7,350 nucleotides of DNA. Origin: a virus. Its lineage: Duplodnaviria; Heunggongvirae; Uroviricota; Caudoviricetes. Below, in pieces: positions 1,201 through 7,350 of the stretch (position 1 is the first letter of the stretch; each line of letters starts with the position of its first letter). Under the pieces are notes generated by a model, which was not told where the DNA came from, searched no databases, and saw nothing but the letters and a program-made list of their open reading frames with translations. Where the stretch lies: the IMG/VR virus record IMGVR_UViG_2698536628_000019; one strand, 5' to 3'. The position numbers and the translations under genes are program-made.

Positions 1201-1253
1201 TTAACTGTTCCGCGTGCGCTGAGCCGCATTCACCGCATCACAAAATTCACTTT

Positions 1254-1311
1254 AAAAAGGGCGGCAGAGCAGCCACGGAGTAAAACTGATACCGCCAAAC
1301 GTCACCAGAAA
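1254..1311 (-). ncRNA. dicF: DicF-type small regulatory RNA (Hfq-dependent sRNA processed from the dicB operon transcript) with 3' intrinsic terminator
   Basis: Minus-strand sequence tttctggtgacgtttggcggtatcagttttactccgtggctgctctgccgccc followed by ttttt matches the E. coli DicF sequence as I recall it, with about one mismatch. The GGCGG...CCGCC stem plus U-tract forms its terminator. Flanked by YdfC-like upstream and DicB-like downstream, the canonical order. Not verified by alignment. Confidence 0.75.
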
Positions 1312-1652
1312 ATTGATAACAGAGGGCGTTGCAGCGGGGTTGTCACTTAAGCGTATGGTCAACCTGACAACCCGGTGTCCTCAACTGGGGAAGGAATAAC
1401 CCCGCCATACTTACCGCCGCGCCATTTCGCGGATTGCCACAACCGGAAGCGCACGGTCGACGAAAATTTAACGACAGGCTATCTATGAACCAGCTACCTC
1501 GCCGTGCGCTTTCGCGTTATGGTCTGACTTTTCAGGGAAATATCCTTTCAGTAAACTGTCAGTGCCGGATGCTCACCCGTGTCCGGCGCACGCACTCCAC
1601 CTCACCCGTGGAGAACTCCTTAATTACCAACCTTAGCTTCGTTGGTTAGCTA

Positions 1653-1871
1653 TTAACGCGGGTATGTAATCATTCTGGCAATGCTTAATGCCGCTGCTTT
1701 TTCCAGATTGGTGATATCCTGCTCCAGAGCGGACAGATTTTCAGCCTGCTTAGCCCTGGCTTCATTGGCCCATTTCAGGTCCTGCGCTGCCTTAATTTTC
1801 TGGTGCATCCACTCATAAAGTTCATCATCGGTATAGTCTGGCGCGATGATGACGGGTTCTCGTTTCTGCAT
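1653..1871 (-). CDS. YdfC-like small protein (72 aa), predicted coiled-coil, dicB-operon member
   Basis: Track ORF 1653-1871 (-), MQKREPVIIAPDYTDDELYEWMHQKIKAAQDLKWANEARAKQAENLSALEQDITNLEKAAALSIARMITYPR. Strong SD AAGGAG 5 nt upstream of the ATG (rc of 1872-1886). Size and position upstream of dicF match ydfC of Qin-type prophages; name assigned by position and length only. Confidence 0.7.
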   Translation of the reverse strand: MQKREPVIIAPDYTDDELYEWMHQKIKAAQDLKWANEARAKQAENLSALEQDITNLEKAAALSIARMITYPR

Positions 1872-1942
1872 GTCGGCTCCTTGTGGTTAGCGCTGCCTGC
1901 TTTTAACCACGTCAGGCGAGGTGGTATCCTCTGAGGGGTCTG

Positions 1943-2299
1943 TTACTCGAGAGGAAATTGGTTATGAATACAATCAAGTTTTCTTGCCCAGAATGTGGTG
2001 GCGAAGTCTTTGACACATCCTTTAAACCGCATGGCTCTGACAGTTTCGCGGGAGCCATCTGCAAAAATTGTGGTCACCTTGTAACTGAAGATGAGTCCTC
2101 GCAGTTTGATGACGAAATCGTTGACAATATCTTCGGTGCACTCACCAGAGACTTTCTGAAGTAAAGGCGCATACCGCTTAGTTACCGCTCTGATAATTCT
2201 TACCTGTCCGGCAATGGCGCTGATATCAATATAAAGCGCCATCGCTGTTTCTTTGCTGATCCCTGGATGCCTTCCATTCTGATGTTTGACTTCGCCCAC
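1943..2299 (-). CDS. Alternative antisense ORF (118 aa, GTG start), probably a shadow ORF
   Basis: Track ORF 1943-2299 (-). GTG start with AGAGGA ~8 nt upstream and correct orientation for the left operon, but it contains five rare Arg codons (AGG/AGA/CGA) and no recognisable family features. Listed only because orientation fits the operon. Confidence 0.2.
   Translation of the reverse strand: MGEVKHQNGRHPGISKETAMALYIDISAIAGQVRIIRAVTKRYAPLLQKVSGECTEDIVNDFVIKLRGLIFSYKVTTIFADGSRETVRAMRFKGCVKDFATTFWARKLDCIHNQFPLE
1964..2164 (+). CDS. Small zinc-ribbon protein (66 aa, CxxC-x25-CxxC, acidic C-terminus), function unknown
   Basis: Track ORF 1958-2164 (+). Most plausible start is ATG 1964 with GAGGAAA SD at 1951-1957, spacing 6. 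Two CxxC pairs (CPECGG ... CKNCGH). Codon usage looks ordinary. Overlapped in antisense by the 118-aa ORF 1943-2299, so one of the two is probably not real. Confidence 0.45.
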   Translation: MNTIKFSCPECGGEVFDTSFKPHGSDSFAGAICKNCGHLVTEDESSQFDDEIVDNIFGALTRDFLK

Positions 2300-2480
2300 T
2301 GAGAAATCCTCTGTTTCCCCTTAACGCCGGGGTAGCGGAACAAAAAACCTGCTGCATAGTTAAACGTAATCCCCGCCGTCATGTTCATACGCCTCAGGCT
2401 GGCTACTTAACCCCTGACCACTGCCGGGTAACTCGAAGTATTGCCCTGCGTTCTGTGGGGCGGGGTGGGTTTATGGATAC

Positions 2481-2534
2481 AATTTACAAATTAAAATTTA
2501 ACTGGTCAACATGTTTATTATTAAATTTGTAATT
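2481..2534 (-). promoter_or_regulatory. Putative leftward (dicB-operon-type) promoter flanked by inverted operator-like half-sites
   Basis: On the minus strand: -35 TTGACC (plus 2504-2509) and -10 TAAATT (plus 2481-2486), 17-bp spacer. Inverted half-sites ACAAATT (2486-2492) and AATTTGT (2524-2530) bracket it. The 14-mer TTAAATTTGTAATT (2521-2534) is identical to 3762-3775 in the repressor/cro intergenic region. Promoter call is by eye against sigma-70 consensus. Confidence 0.4.
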
Positions 2535-2542
2535 GCGGGCTG

Positions 2543-2571
2543 TTGCATCAGTCCCAAAATGGGACTACTAT
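2543..2571 (+). promoter_or_regulatory. Putative higBA promoter with palindromic operator in the spacer
   Basis: -35 TTGCAT (2543-2548), 17-bp spacer, -10 TACTAT (2566-2571). Perfect inverted repeat AGTCCCA-AAA-TGGGACT at 2550-2566 lies within the spacer/-10. No SD upstream of ATG 2578, and the predicted transcription start falls at or near the ATG. Confidence 0.4.
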
Positions 2572-2577
2572 ACAGTT

Positions 2578-2880
2578 ATGAAGATTATCTCAGTTAAAAC
2601 ACTCAGGGATTTTTGGGCGGAGAATCCTGATGCAGAACAACCGCTAAGGGCATGGGTGGATGAGGCGGCAAAAGCTGACTGGAAAAGCCCAGCAGACATT
2701 AAGGCACAATACCGAACGGCCAGTATATTGAAAAACCGGCGCGTGGTATTCAACATAAAAGGTAATCATTACCGTTTAATTGTTGCAATTGCGTATCAGC
2801 GAGGATGGGTATTTGTTAAATTCATCGGAAACCACAAGGAATACGATGCTATTGATGCTGATACCATCGAACTGGAGTAA
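2578..2880 (+). CDS. higB: Type II toxin, HigB family (RelE/ParE-fold mRNA interferase), 100 aa
   Basis: Track ORF 2533-2880 begins at TTG; first ATG in frame is 2578 (MKIISVKTLRDFWAENPD...). C-terminal segment VVFNIKGNHYRLIVAIAYQRGWVFVKFIGNHKEYD matches the recalled E. coli HigB/YgjN motif (VFNVGGNELRVVAMVFF...HKEYD). Toxin-first order with antitoxin 2 nt downstream. Confidence 0.8.
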   Translation: MKIISVKTLRDFWAENPDAEQPLRAWVDEAAKADWKSPADIKAQYRTASILKNRRVVFNIKGNHYRLIVAIAYQRGWVFVKFIGNHKEYDAIDADTIELE

Positions 2881-2882
2881 GC

Positions 2883-3242
2883 ATGAACATCAAACCTATT
2901 CGTACAGAGCAAGATTATGAAGCCGCGTTGCGTGCTGTTGAACCCATGTTCGACAATGAGCCCGAAATTGACACGCCTGAGGGGGATTTTTTTGAGGTGA
3001 TGTGTTTGCTAATAGAGGAATATGAAAAAAAACATTATCCCATTGAGCCACCATCCCCAATTGAAGCTATAAGATTTCGCATGGAACAGCAGGGGCTGAC
3101 TGTGAAAGATTTGGAACCCGCAATTGGGAAAAAAAATCGGGTTTATGAGGTGTTGAATGGTACCAGAAGCCTTACGTTACCAATGATTCGCCGTCTTCAT
3201 AATCAATTTGGTATCCCCCTGGAAAGCCTGGTTGGATTATAA
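2883..3242 (+). CDS. higA: Type II antitoxin, HigA family (C-terminal XRE-type HTH), 119 aa
   Basis: Track ORF 2883-3242. SD GGAG at 2873-2876. C-terminal HTH region GLTVKDLEPAIGKKNRVYEVLNGTRSLTLPMIRRLHNQFGIPLESL resembles recalled E. coli HigA/YgjM. Starts 2 nt after the higB stop. Confidence 0.8.
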   Translation: MNIKPIRTEQDYEAALRAVEPMFDNEPEIDTPEGDFFEVMCLLIEEYEKKHYPIEPPSPIEAIRFRMEQQGLTVKDLEPAIGKKNRVYEVLNGTRSLTLPMIRRLHNQFGIPLESLVGL

Positions 3243-3258
3243 AATCTGCTAGTCATTT

Positions 3259-3306
3259 GCCTGATGCTCGTTCCAGAAAAGGAATGCATCAGGCAGTTTT
3301 GTTTTT
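3259..3306 (+). terminator. Rho-independent terminator for higBA, overlapping the stop codon of the convergent repressor gene
   Basis: Stem GCCTGATGC (3259-3267) / GCATCAGGC (3286-3294) with an internal UUCC/GGAA extension, then U-tract AGTTTTGTTTTTC (3295-3307). The minus-strand repressor stop codon (rc of 3289-3291) lies inside the right arm. Confidence 0.6.
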
Positions 3307-3681
3307 CTGCCGCAGTAACTCTTCAAGTTTCCGTTTATAGAAATCGCGTTTTTGCTCCATATCACGAATGATCTGCTCTGCGTCGCTTTGAGGTAACTCA
3401 TCTAAAAGCGATATGATTTTTCGTTGTTGTTCTGTAAGTTGCGGTTGGTTGTCATTACTGGATACAGCCATTTTATCGCCGAGAGTTTCTTCTTCCATAA
3501 AGAACCAATGGACGGGATGTTGTGAGAGCTCTGCTAATTTTTCCAGTTTATCCATTCTTGGCATCACGCCTTTCAACCAACCTTGCACGGATTGGGGTTT
3601 TACACCAAGACGTCTTCCCAGCTCTGACTGGTTTATATTCAATTCCTGCAACACCTGCTGAAGGCGTTTTACAAAGATCAT
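3289..3681 (-). CDS. DicA-like prophage repressor (XRE-family HTH with C-terminal helical domain), ~130 aa
   Basis: Track ORF 3289-3687 starts at GTG; likely start is ATG 3681 (MIFVKRLQQVLQELNINQSELGRRLGVKPQSVQGWLKG...), with GAGGGG SD upstream. N-terminal HTH and a C-terminal segment (LTEQQRKIISLLDELPQSDAEQ...KRKLEELLRQ) resembling recalled DicA (LSPKELELLELFNALPESEQDTQ...NKLFEELLKARQ). Divergent from a Cro-like gene. Confidence 0.8.
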   Translation of the reverse strand: MIFVKRLQQVLQELNINQSELGRRLGVKPQSVQGWLKGVMPRMDKLEKLAELSQHPVHWFFMEEETLGDKMAVSSNDNQPQLTEQQRKIISLLDELPQSDAEQIIRDMEQKRDFYKRKLEELLRQKNKTA

Positions 3682-3687
3682 CACCAC

Positions 3688-3807
3688 CCCTCGTAAACTA
3701 GTTCCGCGATCCTACAGAAAAAATTGATAAGTGGCATTACAAATAGAAGTTGAAATTTAAATTTAAATTTGTAATTATCGGTGTCATCGTAAAGTTCGGA
3801 GGGAAAC
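3688..3807. promoter_or_regulatory. Repressor/cro intergenic switch region: divergent promoters with operator-like inverted repeats
   Basis: 9-bp inverted repeat ATTACAAAT (3735-3743) / ATTTGTAAT (3766-3774) separated by 22 bp. Tandem AAATTT x3 (3752-3769). Rightward candidate promoter TTGAAA (3749-3754), 17 bp, AATTAT (3772-3777). GGAGGG SD before ATG 3808. Confidence 0.55.
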
Positions 3808-4068
3808 ATGCAAAAAAGTACTCAAGTGAAAATCCTGTCAATAATGAGCCAATCAGAATTAGGGCGTCGTCTTGGTAAAACACCGCAAACCATAAGTGGG
3901 TGGTTTAAAAAACGAGTGCCAGCGGAGGAGGTTATACCAGCATGTGAGGCGCTTGACTGGGGAGTAACTCCGCATGAATTGCGCCCTGATAAATACCCTA
4001 ATCCAACCGATGGTTTACCTGTTGAGTATCAGGCTAACGCACAAGCAGCGGCGGGAGTTGATTCATGA
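3808..4068 (+). CDS. Cro-like HTH regulator, YdaS/DicC family (86 aa)
   Basis: Track ORF 3808-4068. HTH segment SQSELGRRLGKTPQTISGWFKKRVP and ...GVTPHELRPD resemble recalled YdaS (Rac) / DicC (Qin). Divergent from the repressor. ATGA overlap with the next gene. Confidence 0.8.
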   Translation: MQKSTQVKILSIMSQSELGRRLGKTPQTISGWFKKRVPAEEVIPACEALDWGVTPHELRPDKYPNPTDGLPVEYQANAQAAAGVDS

Positions 4069-4502
4069 AAATCAAGCATGAGCACATCCGCATGGCGATG
4101 AATGCGTGGCTGCTTTATCCGAGGGTAGGGCGCAAAAAAATCGCTGATGATATAGCGACAGCATATTTTGAGCTTGAAATGACTTATCCACCAATGCATG
4201 ACACCTCTACGACAGAGGGTATTGGATTGAACATACAAAATATTTTTCGCTGGCTTGAAAAGGATACGCCTGATGCTGTTGAAAAAATTCAGGCACTAAT
4301 TCCAGCTATCCTGACTGTTCTTCCGCGTGAACTGCGTTATCACCTCAGTATTTTTGACACTGTTGAGCGCCGTGCATTACTGGCGGCCCAGGAAGCGTTG
4401 AGCACGGCAATTGATGCGCATGATGATGCAGTCCAGGCAGTTTACCGGAAAGCGTATTTCAGCGACGGCGGGTCATCCGGCGAGTCTGTTGTGGTGCATT
4501 GA
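4065..4502 (+). CDS. ydaT: YdaT-like protein (CII-like regulator family, 145 aa)
   Basis: Track ORF 4065-4502. Starts MKIKHEHI... and carries the segment KIQALIPAILTVLPRELRYHLSIFDTVERRALLAAQEALSTAIDAHDDAVQAVYRKA, which I recognise from Rac-prophage YdaT. Translationally coupled to the Cro-like gene (start overlaps stop). Confidence 0.75.
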   Translation: MKIKHEHIRMAMNAWLLYPRVGRKKIADDIATAYFELEMTYPPMHDTSTTEGIGLNIQNIFRWLEKDTPDAVEKIQALIPAILTVLPRELRYHLSIFDTVERRALLAAQEALSTAIDAHDDAVQAVYRKAYFSDGGSSGESVVVH

Positions 4503-4588
4503 TATTTATGCCAGACCCCTGCTGATTCTGTTGATTGGGGAATCACAGAATATCACCAGAGGATGGTTCGTCACAAGATGAGGCAATT

Positions 4589-5599
4589 ATGGCCGCATTA
4601 CCATACATGCAACTGTACATAGCTGATTACCTGGCTGACACCATGCATTTGTCCGCAGAGGAGCACGGTGCGTATTTGTTGCTGATGTTCAATTACTGGC
4701 AAACAGGGAAACCAATACCTAAAAACAGGCTGGCAAAAATTTCCCGTCTGACTAACGAGCGATGGGCTGATGTGGAACCATCCTTGCGGGAGTTTTTTTG
4801 CGATAACAGCGATGAATGGGTGCATCTTCGGATTGAGGAAGATCTGGCATCAGTCAGGGAAAAATTGACCAAAAAATCAGCCGCCGGAAAAGCATCTGTT
4901 CAGGCCAGAAGAAGCAGAAAGGAAGCATATGTTCAAACAAAACAAGAGAGAGATTTAACAGGTGTTCAAACAAATGTTGGTGTTGTGTTTGAACATGACG
5001 CAAACACAAAAGCAACTAATAAAGATACAGATCTAAAAGAATTAAACCCCACACATAACGTGCGTGAACGCGAGAGTATTCCGACCAGTGAGTCGCATGG
5101 TGCGCCGTTGCAGACAGCCGAACCTGAATACCTGGACGGCCTGAGCGAACCGATCGGGAAATTTTCGATGACTACTGTCTGGCAGCCGTCGCCGGATTTT
5201 CGACAACGGGCAGCAGTGTGGGGTATGGCTCTGCCTGAGCCGGAATTTACACCTGCTGAGCTTGCCGCATTCCGGGATTACTGGATGGCGGAGGGGAAGG
5301 TTTTCACGCAGGTTCAGTGGGAGCAGAAATTTGCCCGCCACGTGCAGCACGTCAGGGCACAGGTAAAACCAGTCAGCAAGGGGGTAAGCCATGCAGCATC
5401 AGGTGGCACGGCATCACGGGCAGTTCAGGAAATCCGGGCAGCACGCGAACAGTGGGAACGTGAAAACGGATTTATCAGCAACGGAAACGGCCTGGAAGCT
5501 GTGGGAGCTTATGGGGGAGGTGTATTCGAACCGCTGGACTCAGAAGAACGGGGCCGCACCTTCGAAGCTCTGGATTGCCCAGATTGGTGCGATGACTGA
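4589..5599 (+). CDS. ydaU: YdaU-like replication-associated protein: N-terminal DUF1376, C-terminal DnaT-like domain (337 aa from ATG 4589)
   Basis: Track ORF 4535-5599 begins at TTG; ATG 4589 with GAGG SD gives MAALPYMQLYIADYLADTMHLSAEEHGAYLL..., the DUF1376/YdaU signature. Segment GKFSMTTVWQPSPDFRQRAAVWGMALPEPEFTPAELAAFRDYWMAEGKVFTQVQWEQKFARH matches the recalled DnaT C-terminal domain ([29 protein letters not shown]...[20 protein letters not shown]). Confidence 0.85.
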   Translation: MAALPYMQLYIADYLADTMHLSAEEHGAYLLLMFNYWQTGKPIPKNRLAKISRLTNERWADVEPSLREFFCDNSDEWVHLRIEEDLASVREKLTKKSAAGKASVQARRSRKEAYVQTKQERDLTGVQTNVGVVFEHDANTKATNKDTDLKELNPTHNVRERESIPTSESHGAPLQTAEPEYLDGLSEPIGKFSMTTVWQPSPDFRQRAAVWGMALPEPEFTPAELAAFRDYWMAEGKVFTQVQWEQKFARHVQHVRAQVKPVSKGVSHAASGGTASRAVQEIRAAREQWERENGFISNGNGLEAVGAYGGGVFEPLDSEERGRTFEALDCPDWCDD

Positions 5600-6053
5600 A
5601 CAGCAAATCCGTCTGGTCTGCCGTCAGTGCATGGACCGCTGCCGGGCGGGTGAAACGTGGCCCCCGGACCTGGCTGAGTTTGTTGCGCTGATTTCGGAGA
5701 GTGGGGCAAATCCATTTGGTCTTACGGTGGATGCCGTGATGGAAGAGTACCGGCGCTGGCGCAATGAATCCTGGCGATACGACGGGAGTGATAAATACCC
5801 GTGGCCACAGCCTGTGCTGTACCACATCTGCCTCGAAATGCGTACCAGAGGGATTGAGCGCCAGATGACGCAGGGTGAGTTAAAACTACTTGCAGAACGG
5901 CAACTGACGAAATGGGCAAAGCATGTTGGTAACGGGATGAGTGTTCCGCCAGTGCGACGACAACTGGAAGGGGCGAAACACCCGCAAGGGCCAACGCCAA
6001 TTGAGCGGCTGAAACAGGAATACGAACGCCGGAAGGCAGCTGGTTTTATTTGA
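5391..6053 (+). CDS. Lambda P-like replication protein (helicase-loader family); start uncertain (ATG 5391 with strong SD, or ATG 5592)
   Basis: Track ORF 5391-6053. Segment WPPDLAEFVALI...VDAVMEEYRRWRNESWRYDGSDKYPWPQPVLYHICLEMR parallels recalled lambda P (FLPSPGQFVAWCRE...VDMVYEYCRKRGLYPDAESYPWKSNAHYWLVTNLYQNMR). AGGGGG SD 6 nt before ATG 5391. This start implies a 209-nt out-of-frame overlap with the YdaU-like gene; ATG 5592 would give an 8-nt overlap but has a poor SD. Confidence 0.65.
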   Translation: MQHQVARHHGQFRKSGQHANSGNVKTDLSATETAWKLWELMGEVYSNRWTQKNGAAPSKLWIAQIGAMTEQQIRLVCRQCMDRCRAGETWPPDLAEFVALISESGANPFGLTVDAVMEEYRRWRNESWRYDGSDKYPWPQPVLYHICLEMRTRGIERQMTQGELKLLAERQLTKWAKHVGNGMSVPPVRRQLEGAKHPQGPTPIERLKQEYERRKAAGFI

Positions 6054-6086
6054 ATCTGAGAAACGATTTTGTCGGAGGAAATTTTA

Positions 6087-6812
6087 ATGGAAACCGTATT
6101 TGACGCACTGAAAGCACTGAAAAGAGCCTCTTCACAGGTAGTGGCGGCCCGCCTTGGAATCAGCCGTGAAGATGCGGTCAACGAACTGTGGAAACTGAAG
6201 CGCCGCGGTGAAGCGGATAACAAGGGGTCGATGTGGTGGCTGATTCAGGCTGGTGAAAGTGAACCGGTGTCACCGGTACCGAAAGTGACAGCGCAAATGC
6301 TGACTGAGGCGATTGAACAACATGGCCCACAAACGGCGGATGAGCTGGCACTGATGTTCGGGATTACCTCCCGCCGGGCGAATTCATCGCTGGCCATGGT
6401 AATCAGCAAAGGGCGTCTGATTCGCGTGAATCAGGGCGGTAAATTTCGTTACTGCATACCGGGCGCTGATTTACCGGCAGAGCCGGAAGCTGCATCCGTA
6501 GCGGAAACCGATGGTAAAGCCTTTCCTCAGCCAGCAGGTGTTGCGTTACCAGTTCGGGAAGCAGAAACACAGGAAGAAATAAAAACGGAAAGTGTGGCGG
6601 TCACAGTGCAGTCACAGCCGTCGTTCACCAGAAAACATCCGGATGGTCTGATTTTACCATCGCTGCATGTGGCTAACCGCGAGCTGCGCCGGGCAAAAGG
6701 TCAGGTTCAGAAGTGGGAGCGAGTCTGCGCCGCGCTGCGGGAGCTGAACAAGCACCGGGATATTGTTCGACAGATTACTGATTCTTCCCGCCGTGTTGTA
6801 TCGGAAAAGTGA
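6087..6812 (+). CDS. Uncharacterised prophage protein with two N-terminal winged-helix-like segments (241 aa)
   Basis: Track ORF 6069-6812 starts at TTG; ATG 6087 preceded by GGAGG (6074-6078). Two HTH-like segments ([24 protein letters not shown]; [28 protein letters not shown]), then a low-complexity acidic linker and a basic C-terminus. Family assignment unverified (possibly a DUF1627-like prophage protein). Confidence 0.7.
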
Positions 6813-6827
6813 TTGCCGGAGGCGCTT

Positions 6828-7220
6828 ATGGCAAAAGAATTTACACCAGAAGAGCGGGAAGAAGTGAAGGCGCGCATTGTGGAATTCGTGCGCCTGAGCG
6901 GACGAGAAACTTTTCGACAACTGGCAGATAAAACGGGTGTCAGTAAGACCGCTATTCGTCGTTTATCTGGTGCGCTTGCGGCCAGTGGTGATGTCTGGCT
7001 CTCTGGTTGCGGGGTATTTCCATCAGAGCAGGCGTATCGCGTATGGCGTAAGACACCGGAGAAGGCTGCTGACCCGACACTGATTCGAAAGTTACCTGAC
7101 GGAGAAATACGTCGTTACAACAGACGGCAGAACATAATTTGTCGTGAGTGCCGCCAGAGCGAAGTTATGCAGCGTGTGCTGGCGTTCTATCGGGGAAACT
7201 TTCAGGAGGTGATGGAGTGA
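6828..7220 (+). CDS. Uncharacterised prophage protein (130 aa) with an HTH-like segment
   Basis: Track ORF 6813-7220 starts at TTG; ATG 6828 with CGGAGG SD 5 nt upstream (MAKEFTPEEREEVKARIVEFVRLSGRETFRQLADKTGVSKTAIRRL...). Stop overlaps the start of the next gene. Confidence 0.65.
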   Translation: MAKEFTPEEREEVKARIVEFVRLSGRETFRQLADKTGVSKTAIRRLSGALAASGDVWLSGCGVFPSEQAYRVWRKTPEKAADPTLIRKLPDGEIRRYNRRQNIICRECRQSEVMQRVLAFYRGNFQEVME

Positions 7221-7350
7221 GGGTGAGAGTTTATATTGCCGGTCCAATGACGGGATATGAAAATTTCAACCGTGAGGCGTTTCACAAGGCGGAAGAGGAA
7301 CTGAAACGGGAAGGGCATACCGTCTTAACTCCGGCAGTACTTCCGGACGG
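7217..7350 (+). CDS. DUF4406-like / nucleoside 2-deoxyribosyltransferase-like protein, N-terminal 44 codons (continues past the window end)
   Basis: Frame from GTG 7217 (GTGA overlap with the preceding stop; AGGAGG at 7204-7209) reads MRVRVYIAGPMTGYENFNREAFHKAEEELKREGHTVLTPAVLPD. The YIAGPMTG motif near the N-terminus is characteristic of the deoxyribosyltransferase-like fold. Partial, so low certainty. Confidence 0.5.
   Translation, partial: MRVRVYIAGPMTGYENFNREAFHKAEEELKREGHTVLTPAVLPD

Follow-up and report, generated by a model that had tools for sequence, protein, structure and literature searches.

The 7,350 nucleotides analysed here (IMG/VR virus record IMGVR_UViG_2698536628_000019, Caudoviricetes), called the window at their full length, are the immunity and early region of a lambdoid prophage of the Qin/dicB type that is found in O26, O103 and related Escherichia coli. 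This work concerns positions 2481 to 2571 of the window, where two predicted promoters stand back to back. One is directed leftward into the operon that contains ydfC, DicF (a small RNA, sRNA) and dicB, and the other is directed rightward into higBA, a toxin-antitoxin (TA) operon. Both lie within the 413 unannotated bases that separate the end of an ECs_2282-family gene (2164) from higB (2578). On the minus strand the order of genes from the left is an exonuclease gene, a DUF1482 gene, dicB, DicF and ydfC. The features of the window and their coordinates are collected in Table 1.

Table 1. Genes and regulatory features of the window (SD, Shine-Dalgarno sequence; HTH, helix-turn-helix; OL, promoter-proximal operator)
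Feature	Position	Strand	Remarks
dicB	968 into a run of N	-	annotated; leftward operon
DicF sRNA	1259-1310	-	Rfam RF00039, 75 bits; leftward operon
ydfC	1653-1871	-	annotated; leftward operon
ECs_2282-family gene, 66-aa CxxC zinc-ribbon	1964-2164	+	NF047912, 57 bits
Non-coding leader of the early-left transcript	2314-2471 (reaches about 2300)	-	about 130-160 nt; begins at the predicted start
Leftward -10, TAAATT	2481-2486	-	17-nt spacer; variants TA[A/G]ATT; predicted start near 2474
Promoter-proximal operator (OL), TTACAAATTAAAATTTAA	2484-2501		predicted; overlaps leftward -10 and spacer; 2485-2501 invariant in 12/12 variants
Leftward -35, TTGACC	2504-2509	-	invariant in 11/12 variants, TTGACT in the twelfth; same hexamer in K-12 dicBp
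Distal operator copy	2515-2532	TTACAAAT on - at 2525-2532	upstream of leftward -35; mostly conserved in variants
Variable junction of prophage operator and higBA cassette	2533-2542		most variable stretch in the 12 variants; 1-nt indel
higB -35, TTGCAT	2543-2548	+	TTG invariant in 12 variants; TTGnnn in homologues, spacing nearly always 17
Palindrome AGTCCCA-AAA-TGGGACT, presumed HigA operator	2550-2566		fills the promoter spacer and touches the -10
higB -10, TACTAT	2566-2571	+	variants TAnnAT (T1, A2, A5, T6 kept); gap to ATG always 6 nt
higB toxin gene, 100 aa	2578-2880	+	PF09907, 113.7 bits (cut-off 27); PGAP-annotated; predicted 5'-terminal AUG
higA SD, GGAG	2872-2875	+	within the 3'-terminal part of higB
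higA antitoxin gene, 119 aa, C-terminal HTH	2883-3242	+	HTH_3 at residues 63-115; homologous to K-12 HigA (5YCL, 5IFG)
higBA intrinsic terminator, hairpin and U-run	3257-3310	+	predicted; -23.5 kcal/mol, z = -3.6, then AGUUUUGUUUUU
DicA-like repressor gene, CI equivalent, without peptidase domain	3289-3681	-	HTH_3; convergent with higA
Right operator/promoter region	3737-3778		TTACAAAT at 3737 and 3767; rightward promoter TTGAAA-17-AATTAT
YdaS-type cro-like gene	3808-4068	divergent from repressor gene	annotated; followed by a YdaT-type gene and replication genes

An earlier note on this DNA had named the motifs of the region, and a direct check of the sequence found all of them in place. The leftward -35/-10 pair is bracketed, as described, by the half-sites ACAAATT (2486-2492) and AATTTGT (2524-2530), which are parts of the longer TTACAAATT (2484-2492) and AATTTGTAA (2524-2532). 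On the plus strand, TTGCAT-17-TACTAT holds the perfect palindrome AGTCCCA-AAA-TGGGACT, and the six bases between the -10 hexamer and the higB ATG (ACAGTT) contain no purine-rich SD. One figure needs correction: the two promoters, put forty bp apart in the note, have their -35 hexamers 33 bp apart, with 2510-2542 lying between them.

Taken singly, these motifs are statistically unremarkable. The leftward promoter, a 9/12 match to the consensus, is listed by a promoter scan, which finds six such sites in 2.5 kb against 4.7 ± 2.2 in shuffled sequences, so the match alone is not significant. Nor is the higB palindrome significant by itself, as the window contains nine perfect 7+7 palindromes where 3.3 are expected. 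Support for the two promoters accordingly has to come from sequence repeats inside the window and from comparison with other sequences. The 8-mer TTACAAAT has four exact copies in the 7350 bp against 0.33 expected, a number reached in none of 200 shuffles, and the palindrome and the layout from -10 to ATG recur in homologous loci far above background.

The leftward promoter and its operators

The four copies of TTACAAAT form two inverted pairs, one at the leftward promoter (2484 and 2525) and one in the intergenic stretch that separates the repressor and cro-like genes (3737 and 3767), and they occur nowhere else in the window. Positions 2484-2501 are identical to 3757-3774 on the opposite strand at 17 of 18 bases. 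When each is read on its own strand, the leftward and rightward promoters are built alike, with ATTACAAAT, the -35 hexamer, a spacer of the TTAAATTT(A/T)AATTTG type and the -10 hexamer in succession. Operators that are common to the left and right control regions are a typical trait of lambdoid immunity. Conservation of the individual elements was read from a set of 12 distinct variants of 2460-2600, with the outcome given in Table 1.

The sequence downstream of the predicted start provides a further landmark. Bases 2165-2471 recur in conserved form in several phages and in about 3080 out of 5426 complete genomes of E. coli. The homology breaks off around 2471, within a few bases of the predicted start near 2474, a mosaic boundary that supports the leftward promoter. 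Anchoring on the start of the leader gave 113 viral contigs, which reduce to 74 distinct upstream regions with at least ten unrelated operator types. In 65 of these 74 regions the best TTGACx-16/18-TAnnnT pair places the end of its -10 hexamer 14-18 nt ahead of the leader box, compared with 15 nt in the window. One operator type carries PaaR2 (N-terminus MQKKE), PaaA2 and ParE2 just upstream, which identifies it as PL933P, the early leftward promoter (PL) of prophage CP-933P, and reporter fusions have found PL933P to be active and repressed by PaaR2 and YdaS (PMC8630535). Another operator type is that of the HK022 left promoter region. In K-12, DicA represses the promoter dicBp 22-fold, and the ydfABC-dicF transcript starts at dicBp (PMC10448788).

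The window holds a sigma-70-type promoter beside the immunity genes that is aimed into ydfC, DicF, dicB and the exonuclease gene, all on the same strand. Operator repeats are common to the left and right regions, the position of the promoter equals that of PL933P and of the HK022-type PL operator set, and its layout equals that of K-12 dicBp. From its sequence and setting, TTGACC-17-TAAATT is the PL/dicBp equivalent of a distinct immunity type, presumably bound by the repressor encoded at 3289-3681. The earlier note had proposed that this is the repressor-controlled promoter of the ydfC-dicF-dicB operon. The proposal gains support from the half-sites, which are the same 8-mer that flanks the rightward promoter (the 17/18 match included), from the break in homology at the predicted start, from a -35/-10 position that is kept in at least ten operator types including PL933P, and from the presence of ydfC, DicF and dicB downstream on the same strand.

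The repressor matches NF007257 (DicA) over its full length at 49.9 bits, below the family cut-off of 101, and for this reason it is not filed as DicA, although in architecture and presumed role it is DicA-like. It is carried by 23 viral contigs and by about 148 complete genomes of E. coli, for the most part from O26, O103 and pathogenic strains related to them. higBA is also present in 148 of the 148 genomes and 23 of the 23 contigs, and no prophage with the same repressor and without higBA was found among them. With this constant association, the block of left operator, higBA, repressor gene and right operator travels as a single immunity cassette. Chromosomal higBA loci, for their part, lose homology to the window at around 2533-2542, the junction listed in Table 1.

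Some further details of the right operator were recorded. Positions 3753-3770 read (AAATTT)x3, a self-complementary sequence between the rightward -35 and -10. A minus-strand match, ATGACA-16-TAAATT, directed at the repressor gene, overlaps it. The repressor gene has a leader with a GAGGGG SD, unlike cI and paaR2.

The higBA operon and its promoter

The two genes have the makings of a type II HigBA system. The toxin has a RelE-like HigB_toxin domain, and an Xre-type HTH antitoxin gene lies directly downstream, in the reverse of the usual TA order, with its start 2 nt past the higB stop codon and an E-value of 3e-9 for the match of its product to K-12 HigA. The start codon of higB at 2578, assumed in the earlier note, is confirmed by protein length and alignment: the resulting 100 aa are the norm for homologues, of which there are thousands, the first residue pairs with Met1 of the K-12 HigB whose crystal structure is known, and the protein contains no other Met. 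The sole upstream in-frame start, TTG at 2533, was rejected, as it lies in the hypervariable junction, is disturbed by a 1-nt deletion in one variant and would give a protein longer than the 100-aa homologues. At the other end of the operon, the hairpin of the predicted terminator overlaps the stop codon of the repressor gene, and its tail runs inside the repressor coding sequence. The U-run is present on the plus strand only, which makes the hairpin look like a one-way terminator of higBA.

The layout of the higB promoter was compared over 80 HigB loci from species-representative genomes, of which 52 are non-redundant loci with an ATG start and 22 have TTG or GTG. Beyond the last 50 or so bases before the start the loci are unrelated in sequence. 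In 26 of the 52 loci the end of a TAnnnT hexamer is 6 nt upstream of the ATG. The distance is 4 nt in 8 loci, 5 nt in 11 and 7 nt in 5, and other offsets have approximately zero to two loci each. When a -35/-10 model with a spacer of 16-18 nt (17 in nearly every best fit) is applied at this position, 29 of 51 loci reach 8/12 or more, against one or two of 51 at control offsets, and a perfect TATAAT 6 nt before ATG is found in many loci of Chloroflexota, Betaproteobacteria and other groups. An SD-like tetramer precedes higB in only 1 of the 52 loci, while GGAG stands at the usual distance before higA in nearly all proteobacterial and Chloroflexota loci. The higB promoter of the window has the same layout as lambda PRM-cI (TAGATT, 6 nt, ATG). 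In a predicted higB mRNA that begins at the AUG, without an SD, the first 11 nt are unpaired.

The 22 TTG/GTG-start loci, mostly from Bacteroidota, are exceptions, with a box of the TAnnTTTG type 15-20 nt upstream of the start. Outside this group the readable starts are all ATG, except for one GTG (L028). In HigB homologues whose frame opens with TTG, or sometimes GTG (L041, L049-L051, L054-L055, L058-L061, L063-L068, L071, L073-L074, L076 and L078-L080 in our numbering), the box follows the palindrome.

The core of the spacer palindrome, GTCCC/GGGAC, is kept in 11 of the 12 variants, and homologous loci have xxCCC-N3-5-GGGxx as their best inverted repeat. Among SD-using phyla most loci carry it within the spacer, with its centre 18-31 nt before the ATG; in loci of the Bacteroidota type the centre is about 36-38 nt before the start. 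The arm of the operator changes by clade together with the beginning of the HigA recognition helix: GTCCC goes with NRVYE, GCTCCC with RARV[A/S]E, GTTACC with KERVSE and TTCCC with KSR[A/V]SE. The helix residues are approximately 82-92 of HigA, encoded at about 3126-3158. As in known HigBA operons, a palindromic and apparently operator-like element thus overlaps the operon's own promoter, conserved in position and covarying in sequence, and its identification as the HigA operator fits these data. The pairing of arm and helix could serve as a specificity code.

Chromosomal enterobacterial relatives (L005-L010, upstream of higB at about 2430-2500) have two palindromes of the HigA type, the first ahead of the -35 and the second within the spacer. 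Only the spacer palindrome is present in the prophage copy and in one further locus (L004), as if the cassette had been trimmed at the -35 on joining the prophage operator.

The earlier note had suggested a leaderless higBA mRNA, autoregulated at the palindrome. The layout of -10 hexamer, 6-nt gap and ATG, the missing SD and the spacer palindrome have been kept across phyla, and on these comparative grounds a leaderless, HigA-autoregulated higBA operon is a well supported prediction.

Proposed working and alternative explanations

The best joint explanation of the region, to which we give a probability of roughly 0.7, combines a repressor-controlled leftward promoter of the PL/dicBp type with a self-contained higBA cassette that is leaderless and autoregulated. 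Leftward transcription would begin near 2474 and run through the conserved leader into ydfC, dicF and dicB. In the lysogen, the DicA-like repressor would occupy the operators around the leftward promoter and keep the dicB operon silent. Its binding sites would be the 18-bp operator over the spacer and -10 and another copy that precedes the -35; this operator also flanks the rightward promoter. Transcription of higBA, from a weak promoter of its own, would stay low and be repressed by HigA, alone or with HigB, at the spacer palindrome. Since the higB -10 ends 6 nt before the ATG, transcription should start at the A of the AUG and yield a leaderless toxin cistron. Inefficient leaderless initiation on higB, set against SD-driven initiation on higA, would give an excess of antitoxin despite the toxin-first order, and the strong hairpin and U-run would end the transcript. 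Mutual interference of the two promoters, raised in the earlier note, is speculation. The two predicted starts are about 104 bp apart and the transcripts diverge without overlap, so collision between them is not expected. Coupling through the repressor is possible, as the distal operator copy sits 11-28 bp upstream of the higB -35.

Several points weigh against this explanation. The higB promoter is weak by consensus (7/12) and was missed by the promoter scan. E. coli has few leaderless mRNAs and translates them poorly. In the better-studied K-12 relative, higB seems, by its sequence, to have a leader of 25-30 nt; together with the Bacteroidota loci this makes the leaderless layout a trait of a subfamily and not a general one of HigBA. 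The correlation between operator arm and recognition helix follows phylogeny and is confounded by it, and the prophage operator has no clear internal symmetry. From the end of the ECs_2282-family gene (2164) to higB (2578) the plus strand has no predicted terminator, which means that read-through transcripts with a long leader are possible. In the literature searched, which left out most subscription journals, no paper on this HigBA subfamily was found, and neither was a report of a conserved leaderless toxin cistron or of the promoter of this subfamily.

Some of these points can be turned into a different account of the rightward side, in which higB is read from a leadered transcript that comes from an unrecognised promoter in 2165-2540 or from ECs_2282 read-through, and TAnnnT is part of an extended HigA operator or an A/U-rich element for SD-independent initiation. 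The 7/12 promoter, the lack of a predicted terminator in 2164-2578 and the seemingly leadered K-12 relative would all agree with it, and since the right arm of the palindrome abuts the hexamer, the two signals are not cleanly separable. We nevertheless consider this account quite unlikely. In most homologues a TTGnnn lies 17 bp upstream of the hexamer and at that offset only; many have a perfect TATAAT at the 6-nt distance from the ATG and, another 4-5 nt upstream, the palindrome; the hexamer varies in the TAnnAT pattern of a -10; and the sequence upstream of the -35 is unrelated between loci. The same comparisons bear on a further alternative, that the motifs arose by chance in AT-rich intergenic sequence and play no part in regulation. 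Promoter-like sites are no more frequent than in shuffles and a few 7+7 palindromes are expected in any window of this size, but TTACAAAT is enriched and confined to two regulatory regions, the features are conserved across immunity types and phyla, and one positional equivalent has been validated by experiment (PMC8630535). The comparative data make chance a very unlikely explanation.

On the leftward side, the promoter could be real while most of its transcripts end or are processed within the 160-nt leader, which would then be a short RNA, an attenuator or an antitermination element, and ydfC-dicF-dicB would need a further signal or internal promoters. The leader invites such a view: it is non-coding, begins at the predicted start, stays nearly invariant across at least ten immunity types and contains a GCAGCAGG-UUUUUUG stretch, and the opposite-strand ECs_2282-family gene sits between it and ydfC. 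It also sits where putL lies in HK022. A kinship with putL was dropped for want of any sequence similarity, and a conserved small open reading frame (ORF) in the leader was likewise set aside, as its ATG at 2388 reads AAG in many copies. No terminator is predicted in the leader, and its fold is no more stable than that of shuffled sequences (z = +0.84). A search of the whole window against Rfam at E <= 1 returned DicF only, with no match in the promoter region or leader. A consensus fold of 48 unique leader copies gave no compensatory changes, in a set with too little variation and a seed box fixed by the search pattern. In K-12, where only 28 nt of the leader are kept in Qin, the polycistronic ydfABC-dicF RNA comes from dicBp and no other promoter was found (PMC10448788). 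We judge termination or processing in the leader to be unlikely, and prefer a leftward transcript that continues into ydfC, dicF and dicB.

Two observations concern the leftward operon itself. At 1943-2299 two ORFs overlap on opposite strands. The minus-strand rival to the ECs_2282-family gene, of 118 aa, starts directly after the leader and was called in its place by the annotators of phages Evi and 640R1; in close variants (L085 and L086) ydfA-ydfB occupy the slot. The plus-strand gene would, if real, run antisense to the early-left transcript. Further left, a run of 104 N (1097-1200) masks the 5' part of dicB and the dicF-dicB spacer. In strain 11368 of E. coli O26:H11 a stretch of 176 bp corresponds to it (L001, 3226-3401), which shows that the mask differs in length from what it covers; the window is 99.8% identical to that strain to the left of the run and 100% identical at 1201-7350.

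A wider reading brings both halves of the region together. A leaderless toxin with an SD-bearing antitoxin would be an old and required design of this HigBA subfamily, from Enterobacterales to Chloroflexota and Cyanobacteria, that sets the ratio of toxin to antitoxin at initiation and ties the toxin to the leaderless (70S-type) route, and the repressor at the distal operator would link the TA system to lysogeny. We regard it as doubtful. If it were true, stress or phage attack that favours leaderless translation would tip the balance toward the toxin without proteolysis of the antitoxin. More generally, and apart from this reading, toxin-first operons must avoid an excess of toxin, and a leaderless toxin upstream of an SD-bearing antitoxin would be a simple answer. 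Conservation across phyla, even in hosts with few leaderless mRNAs, opens the idea to a direct test. The analysis also supplies a concrete regulatory map, with coordinates, of an unstudied immunity region, and a second case, after paaR2-paaA2-parE2, of a TA system fixed between a prophage repressor gene and PL.

Comparison with known systems

The closest parallel is CP-933P of E. coli O157:H7, with its promoters PRM933P, PR933P and PL933P (PMC8630535). Both prophages are lambdoid, with a short non-cleavable repressor, a Cro of the YdaS type and a CII of the YdaT type, and both, in two unrelated immunity types, have a TA system in the slot between repressor and PL (for the CP-933P type, L087, L118, L141 and others). 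PL lies at the same distance from the same leader, and the left operators repeat the right operator. CP-933P also has a leaderless first cistron, paaR2, which was mapped by 5' RACE (rapid amplification of cDNA ends), whereas higB is predicted to be leaderless from sequence. Unlike the window, CP-933P transcribes paaA2-parE2 together with the repressor gene from PRM, and the repressor gene is the leaderless one; here higBA is convergent with the repressor gene, has its own promoter and operator, and the toxin gene is the presumed leaderless one. The operators are also of different types, GTTTAGTAA in CP-933P and TTACAAAT in the window.

The Qin prophage of K-12 resembles the window downstream, where ydfC, dicF and dicB are 94-98% identical, and in its repressor of DicA architecture. 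Its dicBp, TTGACC-17-TAATCT, likewise lies among DicA operator repeats that recur in the intergenic region of the repressor and cro-type genes. It differs in its operator, TGTTAG...CTAACA, in having no higBA and in missing most of the leader. The K-12 HigBA system (YgjN/YgjM; 5IFG, 5YCL and 6KML) and SehAB of Salmonella share with the window a PF09907 toxin encoded first, an antitoxin with a C-terminal HTH and a palindromic operator, xxxCCA-N3-TGGxxx, that overlaps the promoter. The K-12 proteins are distant from those of the window (E-values 3e-7 for the toxin and 3e-9 for the antitoxin), and the antitoxin has 138-142 aa as against 119. The K-12 operon has two palindromes and a -10 about 30 nt before the ATG, not 6 nt as here. 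SehAB and K-12 HigBA are a different, apparently leadered subfamily.

Lambda PRM-cI is the textbook leaderless mRNA of E. coli, and in lambda the slot between repressor and PL is taken by rexAB. Here as there, the immunity region of a prophage contains a weak promoter with an operator inside it. In lambda the gene codes for the repressor, which activates the promoter, whereas higB encodes a toxin and its operator is presumed to be purely repressive. Beyond the phages, TA operons are reportedly over-represented among the leaderless transcripts of Mycobacterium tuberculosis (Cortes et al. 2013). In Synechocystis, three TA loci have been suggested to be leaderless (PMC4963859). In M. tuberculosis and cyanobacteria, leaderless mRNAs are common and the first gene is usually the antitoxin; the layout described here concerns one HigB subfamily, a toxin cistron and hosts in which leaderless mRNAs are rare. 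Among these known kinds the leftward promoter is ordinary, and autoregulated HigBA operons and leaderless mRNAs are each known already; the interesting part is a predicted leaderless toxin layout that extends across a family.

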